From the NCBI GenBank assembly GCA_964566535.1, contig CAZMIO010000004.1, positions 1 to 64,000 of the forward strand: a stretch of 64,000 nt of DNA, read 5' to 3'. The notes beneath the pieces were generated by a model. The model had not been told where the DNA came from and did no database searches. It saw nothing but the letters and a program-made list of their open reading frames with translations. How positions within the stretch are numbered: the first letter of the stretch is position 1; each line of letters starts with the position of its first letter. Both the position numbers and the translations under genes were made by a program. Source of the stretch: an uncultured Methanosarcinales archaeon. GTDB taxonomy: Archaea; Nanobdellota; Nanobdellia; Woesearchaeales; CAZOXR01. Below, in pieces: positions 16,621 to 42,666 of the stretch.

Positions 16621-19600
16621 TTAAGGGATCTGGCTAATGAACCCCCTTTTTGGTTCAAAGATGTCTCCTTGACGTTTTAGTTTTTCTATTATCTCCTCTG
16701 TTTTTTCTTCATTAACTCCTTTTACCTTGGATTCTTCGATCACATCTTCAATAGGGATTGTTTTTCCGACTCTTGATTCAACTTCCTTAATCACATCCTT
16801 AACAACCAATATATTGCTTCTTTGTGAGGCCGAAATTCCAGATGCGATTCTGTCGATGTCTATTTTTCCAGTTTCTTTATCAAAACCTACCTGCATCATA
16901 CTATACTCCAGAAGTTCAATCGCTTTTCTTGAGTCTTTTTTTGTTACTTTGTCTGCTAACCTGATTTTTGCTGCTGCTTCGCTTAGTCTTACAAGTGCTT
17001 CCAACTGTCTTGGGGAGATTTGAATCGTTTTTATTCCTTCTCCTGAGCCACCAGCCCTCATCTTCATATAGTATTCTTGGATTTCTTGGATTGCCTCATC
17101 TGTTAATTGTGGGGATACGTTTTGACGGATGTATGCAACGTATTTTTTTATGAAGTCTGTGGGGATATCTGGCTCTTTGGTGTCTGGATTTTGATGGAGG
17201 TTTAACATGTGGGCAGAAAGGGCCTTGTCTTTTTTTTCATCCGGTAAATCTTTGATTGTGAAAATTAGGTCAAATCTATTGATCAAAGCAGGGGGCAATT
17301 CGATTTGTTCGGCTATGATCCCGTAAGGATCAAATCTTCCGAATTTGGGATTTGCCGCTGCTAAAACTGTTGTTCTGGATACAAGTGTAGCTTGAATATT
17401 TGCCTTTGAGATACTAACTGTCTGGTTTTCCAGTGCTTCATGCATTGCACTTGTATCTTCTGGGCTCATTTTGTCCATCTCGTCTATACAACAGATACCA
17501 TTTGAGCTTAAGACCATTGCACCTGCCTCTAATGACCACCCTTTCAAGAATTCGTCCTTCACAACAGAAGCAGTTAAACCTGCTGCAGAGATTCCTTTCC
17601 CAGAGATGTAGATTCCTTTTGGTGCTACTCGGTTTATTCTTTTAAGCAGGGCAGAATTGTGTATGACTACGCCATCTGCAACAAAATTATGGACTTTATC
17701 AATTTCGAGGTCATAAACATAATCTCCATTGGATTCAATGGTTTCTATACTTCTTATTTTGTCCCAGAATATATCGCTATTGGCGGTTTGATTAAGAATA
17801 TCAATAAGGGGGTCTGATTTTGCTTTACCTATTTCATTATATCTTTTACAAATTAATTTTAATTTATTGTATGAGGGAAACCTATCTCCCTTTTCATAAT
17901 GTTGGTAAGTAGATCTCGTAATTTCAAACGAATTCTGCGATAATCCATACTTTTTTCTTAATATTGATAACAACTCTTTTAATTCAGGGACTACATTGAG
18001 GTTTGTATTTATTTTTAGGTTCTTTTGAATTTCTTTGTTTAATTGTTCATTTTTTTTGGTGGACACAAATCCAATCTCTTTGAAGTATTTGATTACATCT
18101 TCTCCACTTATCCTAATTCGATAGTAACGCCTTTTTATTTTGGCTAATGTGTTTGTTGCACACTTCATAGAAGAGGATACTTGCGAAACAATACCAAATC
18201 TTAAGAGGATATATTTAATATCATAGATTAATTCCTTACTTTTAGAGCTGAATTCTATTTCTCTTCTGCCTTTTCTAATGTGCCCTTCACAATCAAATAT
18301 GGATTTTAGGAAGTCTTTTATTACATAATTCGGAGATTTACAAATCAGCTTAGGGATGCCCATACCTTCAGATTTTTTTGTTATATTTGGGAAGATTTTT
18401 TGTAAGATCCTTACGATGTCTACAGAAAACCAACGATAATCCCAACAATTATTTTTGTTAGTTTTATTGGAAACTTTACATCCAAATATCTTCTTGGTTA
18501 AGTTTTCAAAATCATTTAAAAGGTCTTGATCACTATTTGTGAATCTTATCACCCCAGATGTATCACTAAATCTGACGTACCCATCCCCTATTAAGTATCC
18601 TAAATATCTTGCGAAATCAGAATCAATGATTGGTTTGCACACATACTTTTTTTTGTTATTTGCTTTTGTTTTTTCAATGTCTGAAGGGGTTATCTGTAGC
18701 GAGCCCAGGATATCTATTTTTGAAGGGGTGGCAATATAGTCGCCTAACTTGAATTCGTCAGCCTTTTTAGAAAAAATCAGTCCATTTCTTGTTGTAAAAA
18801 TTGGGTGCTCTCTCGTTACAATTAACTCGTTTCCGGTTTGAGTAACTATCTTTATCATTTTTTTAGGAGATTTTCTTCTCCAAAATTTTAGTGGTTGTGA
18901 TGTGAAATTTAAACCATTTTCATTTATTGAAAAAATTTTCATTGTACTTTCTTGAGAGTTATTGAATGAAATATTTTTTTCGTAAAATGATTCCATGGTT
19001 GTAATTTCTCCATTCTCTAGAATTATTTTGGCATTGCCGTTAGTACACTTACCAGCTCCAGGGTCCCCTACAAGGAGTATGTGGGTATCTCCCCTACTAA
19101 CCACTTTGTCCTGCCTTACTTTTCTAACTCCTCCCACTAATTGGAGAATGAGGGACTCTTTTATCTTTTCATAGCCGTAGATAGATGGGGCTATTGAGTT
19201 AGTTAATCTTGTCAACACTTTAGGGTCACTGCCCAGATCCTTAATTGCAGCCTTCTCTTCATCAGAAATTTCAACGTCTAAGAATGATTCCTCCATTGCC
19301 TCCACAAAATTTGCCTCAATTATTAGGTCAAACCTTGTAGATTTTGCTCCTGTCCTCATAATTATTGGGACTTCTTTAATGATCCCAGTTGTTAAGATTT
19401 TAGAGCCAGGATTTGTTTTTCTCTCACTTAATGGACTTACCAAGTCCTCTTTTAGGAGGAGGTTCATTCTTTTTGGTTGTTGGCCCCCCTCTAATTGGTC
19501 AGGGGCTTCTTCAAGAACAATTCCTTGGGCATCAACCATCTCTTTACTTAATAATCTGAATTTCCCCTTTCTCCCACAGCCACATTTTGTGGGTTCTTTG

Positions 19601-20025
19601 AAACTTGCGTCCAATTGAAGGACATTAGTAATATTCCCACATGAGGGGCATTCAAATTTTGCAGAAGTTACTTGTGGACGAACATCAGATTTTTGACGAA
19701 CAACACCCTCTACTGTTAAGAGTTTTCCTAAATGGGCGCTTCTTATATTCCTTATATCTATCTTCTGGTTCTCTGGTAGGTTATTGAATCTAACTCTAAA
19801 ATTAATGATTTTTGAGTCAAGTTGTTCAACTGCTAGTTCCGCGGCTTTTATTACTTCTTCTGGTTGGTCTAGAAGAATGTTTGCTAGGTCTGGGTCGAAT
19901 TTTGAAAGTTCAGTAAATTCGACAACAAGAAATTGTTTATCTTTTCTTATGTTTGTTAATAGTTGTTCTTTATAGGTATCTTCAAACAATTCACCAAATT
20001 TTTTAATTTGCTCTGCCGCATCCAT
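16621..20025 (-). CDS. mcm: MCM replicative helicase with one intein
   Basis: Zn finger CPSCG, Walker A GDPGAGK|S, 'CCIDEMDKM', 'AAANPKFGRFD', 'PRQLEALVRL'. Confidence 0.97.
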   Translation of the reverse strand: MDAAEQIKKFGELFEDTYKEQLLTNIRKDKQFLVVEFTELSKFDPDLANILLDQPEEVIKAAELAVEQLDSKIINFRVRFNNLPENQKIDIRNIRSAHLGKLLTVEGVVRQKSDVRPQVTSAKFECPSCGNITNVLQLDASFKEPTKCGCGRKGKFRLLSKEMVDAQGIVLEEAPDQLEGGQQPKRMNLLLKEDLVSPLSERKTNPGSKILTTGIIKEVPIIMRTGAKSTRFDLIIEANFVEAMEESFLDVEISDEEKAAIKDLGSDPKVLTRLTNSIAPSIYGYEKIKESLILQLVGGVRKVRQDKVVSRGDTHILLVGDPGAGKCTNGNAKIILENGEITTMESFYEKNISFNNSQESTMKIFSINENGLNFTSQPLKFWRRKSPKKMIKIVTQTGNELIVTREHPIFTTRNGLIFSKKADEFKLGDYIATPSKIDILGSLQITPSDIEKTKANNKKKYVCKPIIDSDFARYLGYLIGDGYVRFSDTSGVIRFTNSDQDLLNDFENLTKKIFGCKVSNKTNKNNCWDYRWFSVDIVRILQKIFPNITKKSEGMGIPKLICKSPNYVIKDFLKSIFDCEGHIRKGRREIEFSSKSKELIYDIKYILLRFGIVSQVSSSMKCATNTLAKIKRRYYRIRISGEDVIKYFKEIGFVSTKKNEQLNKEIQKNLKINTNLNVVPELKELLSILRKKYGLSQNSFEITRSTYQHYEKGDRFPSYNKLKLICKRYNEIGKAKSDPLIDILNQTANSDIFWDKIRSIETIESNGDYVYDLEIDKVHNFVADGVVIHNSALLKRINRVAPKGIYISGKGISAAGLTASVVKDEFLKGWSLEAGAMVLSSNGICCIDEMDKMSPEDTSAMHEALENQTVSISKANIQATLVSRTTVLAAANPKFGRFDPYGIIAEQIELPPALINRFDLIFTIKDLPDEKKDKALSAHMLNLHQNPDTKEPDIPTDFIKKYVAYIRQNVSPQLTDEAIQEIQEYYMKMRAGGSGEGIKTIQISPRQLEALVRLSEAAAKIRLADKVTKKDSRKAIELLEYSMMQVGFDKETGKIDIDRIASGISASQRSNILVVKDVIKEVESRVGKTIPIEDVIEESKVKGVNEEKTEEIIEKLKRQGDIFEPKRGFISQIP
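17656..19047 (-). mobile_element. Intein (464 aa) with LAGLIDADG endonuclease and HTH, inserted in the MCM Walker A
   Basis: Begins CTNGN after GAGK; block B TREHPI; YLGYLIGDG and FLKSIFDCEG; ends VVIHN followed by Ser. Confidence 0.93.
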
Positions 20026-20808: not shown

Positions 20809-22377
20809 TTATTTATTCTTCAACAAATAATACCTAAAACCCTTTTCAATAGCCTCAAAACTAGCTTCAAGAATGTTAGTATTTACACCAACAGTGCCCC
20901 ATTCTTCTTTTCCATTCTTAAATTCAATATAAACCCTCACAGAAGATTCTGCCCCTAAGTCTTCAGCCATCATAACTTTGAAGTTTATTAATTTGACTTC
21001 TTCGATTGGTTGGTGGGATGTCGCAATCATTTTTTTTAGCGCCTTAAAGATAACATCAACTGGCCCACCTTTTACTGAATCTACAATCTCTTTATTTTTG
21101 CCATCTACTTTTCCCTTAAGGGAACATTCACTAAATTCGCCATTTTTTTGTTCTGATGTTACTTTCCATGATTCTATTTCCACCAAGTTATTTTTGTTCC
21201 CAAAGAACTGCTCAGTTAAAAGGAACTTTTCTGCTTTCAAGTCCCCAATATCATAGCCTTTTTTTTCAAGTTCTTCAACTTTGTTAAGCATATCTTTTAC
21301 CTTGGGATCATTTTTGTCTAATTTGTATCCGAATTTTTTAACTACTTCTACAATGTTTGATTTTCCAGATAGTTCTGATAATATGATATCTCTTTTGTTG
21401 CCCACTAATTGGGGGTCTATATGTTCATATGACGCACCTTTCATTATTGCATCTACATGGATACCTCCTTTGTGGGCAAATGCATTTTTACCGACGAATG
21501 GTTGGTGGTTATTTTGTTTGATATTTGCCAATAAGTAGACGAGTCCGCTTAAAGTTGATAGTTTCTTTAGATCAACCTTCCCTAATTTTATGTTTTTTTT
21601 GATAACTAAGTTAGGAATTAATTGGCATAAGTCCGCATTTCCAGCACGCTCTCCAAATCCATTTACTGTCCCCTGTACATGAGTTATCCCAAGGTCCACT
21701 GCCACTAATGCATTTGCAATTGCAGTTCCAGAGTCATTATGGGTGTGGATCCCAAGTTCTGTTTCAATGTTATTTTTGCCAAGGTATTCTTTTACTTCTT
21801 GGGTTATTGTTTTGAATTCAGATGGGAGGGTCCCCCCATTAGTGTCACATAAAACAAGAACATCTGCTCCTGCTTTTGATGCAGTTGCTAAACAATTTAA
21901 TGCATATTCTTTATCGTCTTTGTAACCATCAAAGAAATGTTCTAAATCATAGAATACTTCTAGATTTTTGCTTTTAAGGAATTTGATACTTTCTTCTATT
22001 GCCAAAAGGTTTTCTTCTGGTGTCGTCTTTAACTGTAATTTTATATGGTCTAGTATTGTCTTACCAAATATACAAGCTATTTTTGCCTTACTTTCTAAGA
22101 TTGCGTTTAAGTTAGGGTCTTCTTCTGCTTTGATACCCTTTCTTCTTGTTGACCCAAAAGCCACAATTTTCGCATTTTTTAGCTTTAGTTTTTCTGCCTC
22201 TAAAAAAGCCCCCATATCTTTTGGATTAGACCCCGGCCATCCAAGCTCAATATAATCAATGCCAAATTCATCAAGAGCAGCAACTATCTCAAGCTTATCT
22301 CTTAAACTGAAGTTTACATCAGAGCTTTGGGAACCATCCCTGAGCAATGTATCGAATATTTTTAGTTGGTTGTTCAT
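20809..22377 (-). CDS. cimA: Citramalate synthase (LeuA/CimA family, bacterial-type CimA)
   Basis: DRE-TIM 'DTLLRDGSQ', 'GWPGSNPKD', 'EHFFDGYK', 'HTHNDSG', 'AFAHKGGIH', C-terminal regulatory domain 'WGTVGVNTNILEAS'. Confidence 0.88.
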   Translation of the reverse strand: MNNQLKIFDTLLRDGSQSSDVNFSLRDKLEIVAALDEFGIDYIELGWPGSNPKDMGAFLEAEKLKLKNAKIVAFGSTRRKGIKAEEDPNLNAILESKAKIACIFGKTILDHIKLQLKTTPEENLLAIEESIKFLKSKNLEVFYDLEHFFDGYKDDKEYALNCLATASKAGADVLVLCDTNGGTLPSEFKTITQEVKEYLGKNNIETELGIHTHNDSGTAIANALVAVDLGITHVQGTVNGFGERAGNADLCQLIPNLVIKKNIKLGKVDLKKLSTLSGLVYLLANIKQNNHQPFVGKNAFAHKGGIHVDAIMKGASYEHIDPQLVGNKRDIILSELSGKSNIVEVVKKFGYKLDKNDPKVKDMLNKVEELEKKGYDIGDLKAEKFLLTEQFFGNKNNLVEIESWKVTSEQKNGEFSECSLKGKVDGKNKEIVDSVKGGPVDVIFKALKKMIATSHQPIEEVKLINFKVMMAEDLGAESSVRVYIEFKNGKEEWGTVGVNTNILEASFEAIEKGFRYYLLKNK

Positions 22378-22467
22378 TGTGTTTTGTTATCCTAGTTTTG
22401 TTTAAAAATTTAGTCATTATAATTCTTAGGCAGAAACAATGGCTACCCATATTATTAAGATGGCAGC

Positions 22468-22536
22468 TTACGCTATAATAATCTTAGTTATAATTAAGAA
22501 AAACTTACTGATCTTTGTTATATTGGAATCAATCAT
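22468..22536 (-). CDS. Putative Ile-rich leader peptide of cimA (22 aa)
   Basis: MIDSNITKISKFFLIITKIIIA*, 8 of 22 residues Ile; ATG ~25 nt downstream of TATA-like tttaaat (22561-22567); stem-loop right after the stop. Confidence 0.65.
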   Translation of the reverse strand: MIDSNITKISKFFLIITKIIIA

Positions 22537-22641
22537 ATATTAAAAAGAGTGTAGATTACTATTTAAACTTTTTGTTTTACCACTATTGAATAACAAATAA
22601 TAGAAAGCTTTATATACTAGTTATTTATCCTTTTACTTACA

Positions 22642-23448
22642 ATGATGGTTGATAGGCCCTTACTAGGGAAATTAAAAGAATTTGGATTAAACACTTATGA
22701 AGCAAAACTTTGGATAGCTTTGCTTTCTAGAGGAGTTTCTACAGCAGGAGAACTTTCTGACATAGCAAATGTTCCAAGATCAAGAAGTTATGACGTTCTC
22801 GAAAGTTTAGAGAAGAAAGGGTTTATTTTAATGAAGCTTGAAAAACCAATCAAATATATTGCTGTTGCACCTGAAGACGTTCTTGATAGGGTAAAGAAGA
22901 AAATTGAACAGGACTCAGTTAGTCAAATGAGTTTGATTGAGGATTTAAAATCTCAAGGGATTATAAATGAGTTAAACTTACTGCACTCTCAAGGTGTTGA
23001 TCTAATAGAACCTACTGATCTTTCTGGTTCATTAAGGAGCAAAGAAAATATTTATAGCCACCTTGAAAATAAGATTAAAACATCAAAAAGCGTTTCAATT
23101 TTAACAACAGAAAAAAGTTTAATCGATAAAGTAATATTAATCAAGTCAGTTTTTAGTAAGATCAAGTCAAAACCTAAGATAAGGGTAATGGCCCCAATTA
23201 CAAAAGATAACATTGAAGCTGCTAAAGAACTTTCAAAGTTTGCTGAAGTTAGACACACCGACAAAAAAGCAAGATTTAGCGTAATTGATGGTCAGGAAAT
23301 AATTTTTATGTTGATGGACAATGAAAAAGTTCACCCAAGCTACGATATTGCGATTTGGGCAAATTCAAGTTTTTTTGCTAAAACGCTAGACACTGTTTTT
23401 GATTCTGAATGGAAGAAACTTAAACCAGTAGAACAGATTAAAGTATAA
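22642..23448 (+). CDS. TrmB family transcriptional regulator
   Basis: 'FGLNTYEAKLWIALL...ELSDIANVPRSRSYDVLESLEKKGF'; C-terminal PLD-like effector domain. Confidence 0.92.
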   Translation: MMVDRPLLGKLKEFGLNTYEAKLWIALLSRGVSTAGELSDIANVPRSRSYDVLESLEKKGFILMKLEKPIKYIAVAPEDVLDRVKKKIEQDSVSQMSLIEDLKSQGIINELNLLHSQGVDLIEPTDLSGSLRSKENIYSHLENKIKTSKSVSILTTEKSLIDKVILIKSVFSKIKSKPKIRVMAPITKDNIEAAKELSKFAEVRHTDKKARFSVIDGQEIIFMLMDNEKVHPSYDIAIWANSSFFAKTLDTVFDSEWKKLKPVEQIKV

Positions 23449-41679: not shown

Positions 41680-41707
41680 GTCCAGTATAGATTTAACTAT
41701 AGTGGAC
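41680..41707. promoter_or_regulatory. Palindromic candidate operator upstream of the tkt-aro operon
   Basis: gtccagtatag-atttaa-ctatagtggac, 10 of 11 arm positions complementary. Confidence 0.45.
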
Positions 41708-41853
41708 TATATAAAATAAAACCAAAAAGATCTATCTAGAAAAAACTCTTCAAACAAAAAATTGATTGAATTATTTATTCTGTTTAACATTGTGATATGG
41801 TAGTTGTTATTTATATATAAACATTTCGTTGTTAAAGAGAAAAAAATAAAAAA

Positions 41854-42666
41854 TTATTTGGGTGGAACGCCAGGTTTCATGTTTTTCCAGGCAACATCAA
41901 ACAAACTATCCATTGCTTTTGCAAAGAAAGGCGTTCTGACCCAGACTCCAACATCATAAGTAGGATGGACTTCAGCATCATCTAAAACCATGAAAATTAG
42001 TTCCTTCCCATCGATTACACAGAATCTTGCTTTGCTGTTGGTATGTCTGACTTCAGCTACACTGCTTACTTCTTTCATTGCCTGCATATTTTCTTTAGTT
42101 AAAGGTGCAGCTATTCTTATTTTAACGCCCCTTTTCTTGATTTTTTCGAATGTTGGCTTGAGTCCTTCTATTTTCCTTAGCAATCCTTTTGATGTAGTCA
42201 TCAATGTTACTGATTCTTCAGCGTTTCTTATTGTAAGTTCTAAGTGGTTGTATAGGTTATGTCTTCCTCTTAAAGATCCAGAAAGGTCAGTTGGTTCAAT
42301 AAGCTCAACACCTTGAGTGTGTAATGTGTTAAGTTCGTTAACAACTTCCGTTCCTTTTAAATTATCTAGTCTATCAATCTTTTCTTTTGCACCTTCTTTG
42401 AGGTTTTTCTTAACTCTTTCTAAAACTTCTGCTGGTGGTACTGCAATATATTTTATCGGTTTGCCAAGTTTCATTATGACAAATCCTTTTTTTTCCAGGC
42501 TTTCTAAGATGTCATAACTTCTTGATCTTGGAACATTTGCTATGTCAGAAAGTTCTCCTGCTGTAGATACTCCTCGTGAAAGAAGCGCTGTCCAAATTTT
42601 TACTTCATAAAGATTTAACGAGAAATACCTTCTCAATTTACTTAAAAATTCTTCTTTTACAATCAT
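41854..42666 (-). CDS. TrmB family transcriptional regulator (paralog of 22642..23448)
   Basis: 'LNLYEVKIWTALLSRGVSTAGELSDIANVPRSRSYDILESLEKKGF'. Confidence 0.92.
   Translation of the reverse strand: MIVKEEFLSKLRRYFSLNLYEVKIWTALLSRGVSTAGELSDIANVPRSRSYDILESLEKKGFVIMKLGKPIKYIAVPPAEVLERVKKNLKEGAKEKIDRLDNLKGTEVVNELNTLHTQGVELIEPTDLSGSLRGRHNLYNHLELTIRNAEESVTLMTTSKGLLRKIEGLKPTFEKIKKRGVKIRIAAPLTKENMQAMKEVSSVAEVRHTNSKARFCVIDGKELIFMVLDDAEVHPTYDVGVWVRTPFFAKAMDSLFDVAWKNMKPGVPPK

Follow-up and report, generated by a model that had tools for sequence, protein, structure and literature searches.

The cimA gene in this 64,000-nucleotide stretch of DNA (hereafter the window) is preceded by a short open reading frame rich in isoleucine codons, and sequence comparison indicates that such an Ile leader upstream of cimA is real, conserved and matched to the pathway product in the Woesearchaeota. 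The leader very probably senses isoleucine through the ribosome that translates it, and for its output the balance of evidence tilts toward premature termination of transcription, with a single hairpin as the gate. It is not a textbook attenuator, as it has neither a conserved terminator/antiterminator pair nor conserved start-site masking; among the RNA structures considered, only a hairpin behind the leader stop codon is robust family-wide. The features of the locus are the following.

20809..22377, minus strand: cimA, (R)-citramalate synthase, 522 aa (TIGR00977, 572 bits; cut-off 450)
22427..22433, minus strand: alternative partner of the hairpin 3' arm, in the window locus only
22432..22441, minus strand: CAUUGUUUCU, which holds a UUCU word placed 7 nt past the stem; candidate pause or termination point
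22442..22467, minus strand: post-stop hairpin, 6 bp predicted; across the family, pyrimidines prevail in the 5' arm and purines in the 3' arm
22468..22482, minus strand: putative sensor segment, Ile-Ile-Ile-Ala-stop, the terminal codons of the leader
22468..22536, minus strand: leader ORF, 22 codons, 8 Ile, predicted leaderless, with an Ile-rich 3' end
22560..22567, minus strand: TATA box TTTAAATA, its first T 31 nt upstream of the leader AUG
22568..22574, minus strand: A-rich, putative BRE-like element preceding the TATA box, so named from its sequence

The source genome (G000) measures 1.45 Mb at 35% GC and is 91% complete, and the close CimA homologues for which an organism is named belong nearly all to Ca. 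Woesearchaeota, Nanoarchaeota or Nanoarchaeia, which makes the source a probable Woesearchaeote. No threonine deaminase scores above cut-off in this 91% complete genome, so CimA is likely the entry step of isoleucine synthesis there. The genome also holds ilvD, and its leuA locus continues with ORFs that read from their N-termini as ilvB, ilvH, leuC, leuD, leuB and ilvC.

Reading of the ORFs confirms what a preliminary description of this locus had reported, a 22-codon uORF (22536-22468) with 8 Ile, five of them in the last eight codons, as well as a BRE/TATA-like element ahead of it (TATA at 22567-22560, A-rich stretch at 22574-22568); relatives carry a similar purine-rich stretch upstream of the TATA box. 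The distance from the leader stop to cimA, estimated there at about 90 nt, is 90 nt, and the cimA AUG lies 64 nt past the hairpin. The stem-loop placed at 22467-22442 is present, but ViennaRNA predicts only 6 bp around a 14-nt loop (-7.6 kcal/mol), which alone folds no better than shuffled sequence (z -0.40, not significant), and the same holds for the whole window leader (z +0.48). The case for a real hairpin in the window therefore rests on conservation and co-variation across relatives. What had been called a short U-rich stretch is CAUUGUUUCU, with 6 U in 10 and no U-tract; no terminator-like site of the bacterial type was called in 22300-22700. An Rfam covariance scan of 22200-22800 gave three chance-level matches and no T-box, riboswitch or leader-RNA match at gathering score. 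When the 265-nt intergenic region was dinucleotide-shuffled 5000 times, 0.46% of the shuffles yielded an ATG ORF with at least five Ile in its last ten codons, a p of about 0.005 for the Ile run of this locus alone. A second AUG, 24 nt past the hairpin, opens an out-of-frame ORF that overlaps the cimA start (22417-22319, minus strand), and some long-gap relatives have similar extra AUGs. Elsewhere in the window, an ORF of 1134 aa reads as an MCM helicase (16621-20025, minus strand) with an apparent intein, Cys at its start and His-Asn at its end, after the Walker A motif.

Conservation was examined in the order to which the genome belongs, where 83 of 401 genomes carry a match to the CimA/LeuA family. 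Forty-three full-length cimA-type loci were taken and three, from genomes flagged as unpublished, were dropped, leaving 40; the paralogue sample comprised 47 of roughly 95 matches, and the outgroup 80 cimA loci (78 bacterial, 2 archaeal) from the genome collection. Loci were assigned to groups by protein score, quick tree and NCBIfam. A leader was defined as an ATG ORF of 8-45 codons ending at most 400 nt from the gene, an Ile leader having at least four Ile in its last ten codons and a Leu leader at least five Leu. An Ile leader precedes 34 of the 40 cimA orthologues (shuffle mean 1.08, maximum 4), which speaks for the uORF on two of the points raised in the preliminary description, its conservation and an Ile content above chance for AT-rich DNA. 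All five Leptospira-type cimA-like genes have one as well (four of these were scanned, with NF042433 as best match, below the NF042433 cut-off). The leuA loci instead carry Leu leaders with Leu/Val runs (31/34, vs an Ile leader in 2/34), and Ile leaders occur at only 1/8 other paralogues and 1/80 outgroup loci; no Leu leader was found outside leuA in the other locus groups tested, and shuffling gives 0.2-1.1 leaders per set. Leader composition thereby sorts two look-alike enzymes, CimA and LeuA, that often stand under one name in databases.

Six cimA loci have no qualifying leader: one has three Ile, another has two Ile and the same hairpin, in two the gene has a TATA of its own, at 32 and at 47 nt upstream, one is apparently operon-internal and one is a divergent copy. 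The Ile leaders span 22 families and, in a quick tree, several enzyme clades. In that tree the cimA of locus L008 (G026:C29) nests among Geobacteraceae/Deltaproteobacteria yet carries a full archaeal Ile leader, a combination that suggests attachment of the leader after separate acquisition of the gene.

The anatomy of the leaders was examined in a working set of 40 Ile leaders (35 at cimA, with at least three Ile, and five at cimA-like genes) and 31 Leu leaders, one locus of which contains an N-run and was left out of most structure tests. The Ile leaders are 15-34 codons long with 4-13 Ile codons each (n=40). Ile stands at position -2 in 40/40, at -3 in 37 and at -4 in 30, and in all 40 leaders at most one codon separates the final Ile from the stop. 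Codon usage is mixed (ATT 128, ATC 47, ATA 45), the Ile codons fall predominantly in one frame (220/7/20 by frame), the flanking genes range from 26 to 57% GC, and the N-terminal halves are only 11% identical; together, these properties suggest selection on codons and not on DNA repeats. The peptides have a charged N-terminal half and a hydrophobic tail, which resembles a short membrane anchor. One might thus suppose that the ORF has no regulatory role, being a small membrane peptide or a product of chance Ile richness in AT-rich DNA beside an unrelated hairpin, with cimA under the control of a divergent TrmB-like gene. The unremarkable fold of the window hairpin alone and the presence of such an ORF at 22642-23448 would suit this reading. 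However, the encoded residue changes from one downstream enzyme to another (Ile, Leu/Val, Phe/Tyr/Trp, Cys), the run is frame-specific, made of mixed codons and persistent at 57% GC, and no such run precedes ileS, valS or ilvD in G000 or the bacterial cimA loci. A non-regulatory origin is very improbable and already largely refuted by the leader counts and the codon and frame analysis. The divergent ORF itself (22642-23448, plus strand) is TrmB-like by sequence reading and has no NCBIfam match at 1e-20.

A TATA box lies 30-33 nt upstream of the leader AUG in 64 matches among the 71 leaders, a result with some built-in circularity, since TATA spacing decided between in-frame starts that were otherwise tied. 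Among 1038 ordinary G000 genes the TATA-AUG distance peaks at 28-32 nt (279 hits); such spacing is common in this genome, and many genes look leaderless. SD-like words precede 2/71 leader AUGs vs 52/71 main-gene AUGs. The leaders, having promoter spacing typical of leaderless starts, are hence predicted to be leaderless. Together with conservation and product matching, this predicted geometry strongly supports the original suggestion of an isoleucine-sensing, cognate-codon leader in an archaeon.

Directly behind the leader stop, a hairpin of -7 kcal/mol or better, starting 0-3 nt past the stop, is present at 32/40 Ile leaders and 26/31 Leu leaders vs 29/1307 ordinary genes. In the family its loop is 50% U. 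When 20 of the 40 Ile leaders were aligned with MAFFT, RNAalifold found no consensus structure, because stems of different length failed to align, and co-variation was therefore tested by comparing cognate with swapped duplexes. The arms vary in sequence but fit their partners, cognate arms pairing at -12.7 vs -5.6 kcal/mol for swapped ones; since the arms were taken from each predicted fold, this comparison is equally a test and a positive control. The hairpin also appears to be tied to the last Ile codon, as its start moves downstream by about 3 nt in leaders whose final codon is Ile: it starts at least 3 nt past the stop in 7/9 leaders ending in Ile vs 5/31 ending otherwise (p 0.006, or 0.03 with another definition, values that overstate the effect since the genomes are related). 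No such effect was found in the Leu leaders (p 0.84 and 0.16).

The word UUCU accompanies this hairpin. It occurs within 45 nt of the stop in 34/40 Ile leaders (shuffle mean 7.6) and 18/30 Leu leaders (6.8), and 13 of the 18 occurrences behind the hairpin begin 7-8 nt past the stem; only 15/40 Ile leaders have UUUU in the 60 nt behind the stop. At putative transcription-unit ends in G000, UUCU is about two-fold enriched (0.46 vs 0.23 shuffled), compared with 0.29 for AGAA there and 0.20 for UUCU inside operons. The enrichment is strand-specific in tandem gaps, and the word enriched after the putative unit ends is UUCU rather than UUUU. In 11/40 Ile leaders, UUCU is missing from the 5' arm, from the loop and from the following 18 nt. 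A CAUUGUU word was rejected as a general terminator, being found at 0/388 convergent gene ends. The genome encodes aCPSF1/FttA (900 bits; cut-off 580), a factor that acts on U-rich nascent RNA (PMC13675443, PMC13681488), and hairpins can enhance archaeal termination (PMC13675443).

These features can be assembled into a scheme in which transcription into cimA would depend on a mini-gene, predicted to be leaderless and with Ile codons at its end, which acts via the hairpin behind its stop. When Ile-tRNA is scarce, the ribosome would lag on the Ile run, the hairpin would fold behind RNA polymerase, and the folded hairpin would shield the pyrimidine-rich UUCU signal, so that cimA is transcribed. 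When isoleucine is plentiful, the ribosome would move past the final Ile codon as far as the stop, melting the 5' arm, and the UUCU-rich RNA, now without structure, would set off termination, probably by way of aCPSF1/FttA. With 4-13 Ile codons per leader, starvation would delay the ribosome before it gets to the hairpin, which should thus mark the ON state; the variable spacer between leader and gene (29-141 nt at Ile loci, 39-346 nt at Leu loci) suits a transcriptional output. Several points count against the scheme: a UUCU located after the hairpin stays unshielded by it, 11/40 Ile leaders have no UUCU at the places named, UUUU is uncommon behind the stop, the Leu leaders show no offset effect, and candidate Cys and Trp leaders have no hairpin. 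This wiring, with premature termination as the output, is about as probable as its negation. Direct evidence for transcription-translation coupling is scarce in archaea, and its extent is still open (PMC13681488).

The distance from the last Ile codon to the hairpin would also permit the opposite wiring of the same sensor. The base of the hairpin lies about 6 nt after the last Ile codon, at +13 from the P site. The mRNA entry port of the ribosome is near +11 to +13. When the RNA is blocked to A-site+8 in folding, the hairpin is kept (mean P 0.85), and with the ribosome at the stop it is lost (P 0.25 or 0.06), as the first scheme would have it; in the window locus, however, P is 0.00 with a block to A-site+12 vs 1.00 at +8. 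In Haloferax the ribosome footprint has its edge 15-16 nt from the P site (PMC7261190), which would cover 3-4 nt of the stem. The footprint and the loss of the window hairpin under the A-site+12 block support a model in which hairpin and UUCU form a hairpin-enhanced terminator, the OFF state, kept open by a ribosome that stalls at the final one or two Ile codons and thereby covers the base of the stem. The invariant Ile at -2 (40/40), the UUCU that begins 7-8 nt past the stem in 13/18 cases and the hairpin-enhanced termination possible in archaea (PMC13675443) are in line with it. However, a starved ribosome would be caught far upstream by the numerous Ile codons that come before, so that the hairpin could form and the response would take the wrong sign, and the stem is reached from the last Ile codon only; we regard this opposite wiring as rather unlikely.

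Classical attenuator structures fared poorly. A conserved III:IV helix, plausible by eye, failed family-wide (p 0.84 and 0.72), with a z below -1.65 in 1/40 loci. An I:II helix of 3-4 bp in eight loci beats swapped partners (p<0.0002) but not synonymous recoding, and a small GNRA-type I:II helix was rejected as not enriched over such recoding. The window locus alone is able to form all three helices, I:II, II:III and III:IV; there, blocking of the 5' arm lets the helix at 22427..22433 form (P 0.6-0.7; z -2.4). A pair of hairpins that exclude each other, antiterminator (II:III) and terminator (III:IV), is not conserved across the leaders, and an intrinsic terminator, i.e., a GC hairpin followed directly by a U-tract, was neither called at the window locus nor conserved in the family. 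The classical bacterial attenuator design accordingly does not hold for the family. Head-to-tail pairing is nominally significant in the Ile leaders only (p 0.0006), a value for which GC content and kinship are uncontrolled.

The preliminary description had proposed translational control; for such control by masking of the cimA start site, no conserved base-pairing was found. Under translational attenuation, the vacated Ile tract or the hairpin would mask the cimA Shine-Dalgarno/AUG, and a stalled ribosome would free it. The leaderless, terminal-run layout is that of mycobacterial poly-Cys ORFs (10.1101/834739), short-gap loci have an SD-like word that adjoins the 3' arm or overlaps with it, and start-site accessibility is 0.57 with a stalled ribosome vs 0.49 free, being higher in 29/40 loci. 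Weak pairing with the start region was also seen for the 5' arm (p 0.012) and for the post-hairpin RNA (p 0.046), two of 22 tests and with no correction for their number. However, pairing of the Ile tail with the start region is no better for cognate than for swapped partners (-6.17 vs -6.21 kcal/mol; p 0.57 for Ile, 0.45 for Leu), although swapping is a weak control here because Ile tails resemble each other, and it is unexceptional against other G000 start regions (median rank 0.38). In the window it amounts to -2.5 kcal/mol, which 88% of G000 start regions match or beat. Gaps of up to 141-346 nt, and the 64 nt between hairpin and AUG in the window, also argue against masking, and this mode of control is considered unlikely.

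A further proposal is that ribosome position governs cleavage or decay of the finished mRNA, or that the hydrophobic nascent peptide arrests the ribosome. aCPSF1, encoded in G000, is a nuclease, the peptides combine a charged N-terminal half with a hydrophobic tail, and the hairpin is placed where translocation could slow. Set against this, the N-terminal halves, 11% identical, hold no peptide motif beyond the cognate run, and fusion to cimA by frameshift or readthrough, a candidate that was rejected, is not general, the path being closed by a stop in 28/40 Ile and 28/30 Leu loci. Such post-transcriptional or arrest-based control is quite improbable. The preferred reading thus remains hairpin-gated premature termination.

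G000 carries further leaders, and those of the Leu/Val, aromatic and Cys types, by their sequences, point to a regulon.

Window 41707..41790, minus strand: sister leader ending in Phe/Trp/Tyr, with hairpin (z -2.4), before a transketolase-aroF-aroB-aroDE-aroA-aroC-tyrA-pheA cluster
G000 C2:184094-184168, plus strand: Leu/Val-rich leader with hairpin (L022), before the leuA-led branched-chain cluster
G000 C3:141822-141890, minus strand: Cys-ending leader before a cysK cluster
G000 C7:34791-34823, minus strand: Cys-ending leader before a tRNA-like element and cysS
G000 C3:95081-95137, plus strand: leader with a GTG start, four Ser at its end and a strong hairpin; a DUF1015 gene and ORFs that read as serC and serA lie downstream

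The aromatic leader and hairpin recur at 10 of the 23 transketolase loci fetched (5 of them not parsed), and Cys-Cys-Cys ORFs occur at 6/30 cysS loci, where the RNA behind them is U-rich, carries a CAUUGUU-like word and has no hairpin. The Ser leader is not clearly conserved, with only one weak candidate beyond G000 among 21 loci (9 not parsed). No His leader was found at the 28 hisG loci, of which 16 were not parsed and where operon starts were mostly not reached, and ileS, valS and ilvD in G000 have no leader. A TrmB-like ORF with a weak TrmBL2 match adjoins the aromatic leader (41854-42666, minus strand), and one also lies upstream of that leader in several relatives. A short ORF with a conserved Ser-Asp-Cys-x-Trp core lies about 200-230 nt before a trpE-like gene (G000 C9, start 33126, minus strand; L254-L278); it occurs at 16/28 trpE-like loci, with a looser variant at a 17th, mostly without a hairpin, and is possibly a sequence-conserved Trp leader, perhaps an arrest peptide. 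Another TATA-led ORF, of 10 codons (G000 C1:52541-52573, plus strand), is followed by a CAUUGUU word before an aminotransferase-like gene and is a possible Ala or Cys leader.

In bacteria, ilvL, ivbL, leuL and thrL are leader-peptide attenuators. The bacterial ribosome-mediated attenuators of trp and his (PMC1183508) share with the archaeal leaders a short ORF with codons for the end product and an adjacent RNA structure, and multivalent versions (Leu/Val; Phe/Tyr/Trp) exist in bacteria as here; the corynebacterial ilvBNC uORF is another case of this type (PMC10272879, PMC11857589). Unlike these, the archaeal leaders have a TATA promoter, a predicted leaderless start, a cognate run that reaches the stop and a single conserved hairpin, with no conserved terminator hairpin and U-tract. 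The mycobacterial poly-cysteine ORFs (Ms5788A; 10.1101/834739) are similar to the Ile leaders in that a leaderless first cistron has its cognate codons at the 3' end and several operons are controlled as a set. However, the poly-cysteine tract pairs with the downstream Shine-Dalgarno and controls translation (10.1101/834739), a pairing that is not conserved in the archaeal leaders, which also cover several amino acids and have the post-stop hairpin.

Among archaea, the Methanothermobacter trp leader has a very short Trp-codon ORF. Rfam RF03001, leuA-Halobacteria, is an archaeal cis-regulatory candidate likewise named after a branched-chain gene; it has no match at the window locus, its best score in G000 is 15.3 bits vs a cut-off of 47.9, and the part of its consensus available is unlike the Woesearchaeota leaders. 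Its source paper may describe this RNA in attenuation terms. TrpY and Tar/TK0271 (PMC6737238) also exert amino-acid-dependent control of archaeal operons, but as DNA-binding proteins acting at promoters, and the available main text of that paper contains neither "attenuat" nor "leader". The accessible parts of archaeal ribosome profiling studies (PMC7261190, PMC11456600, PMC10117724) treat uORFs in general only, and their supplementary uORF tables may list such leaders. No report of cognate-codon attenuation in archaea was found in our search, outside which subscription journals mostly lay. What is new here is the Ile/cimA case in this order, its occurrence on unrelated CimA clades, the spacing between last Ile codon and hairpin, and the UUCU link.

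Overall, the leaders may represent a Woesearchaeota multi-amino-acid attenuation regulon, with a leaderless sensor ORF, one hairpin at the ribosome entry port and aCPSF1/FttA-type termination at UUCU, a module attached afresh to genes of different sources; we propose this tentatively, at a probability somewhat short of even. If true, it would provide direct evidence from genomes for a gating of factor-dependent termination by the position of the ribosome in archaea. Known control of amino acid synthesis in archaea is exerted by DNA-binding proteins. As a portable element of 110 nt, consisting of a codon sensor and one hairpin, it is directly testable in Haloferax, Methanococcus or Thermococcus. 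Members of the DPANN are usually treated as host-dependent, and the leader would point to fine metabolic regulation in a DPANN lineage.
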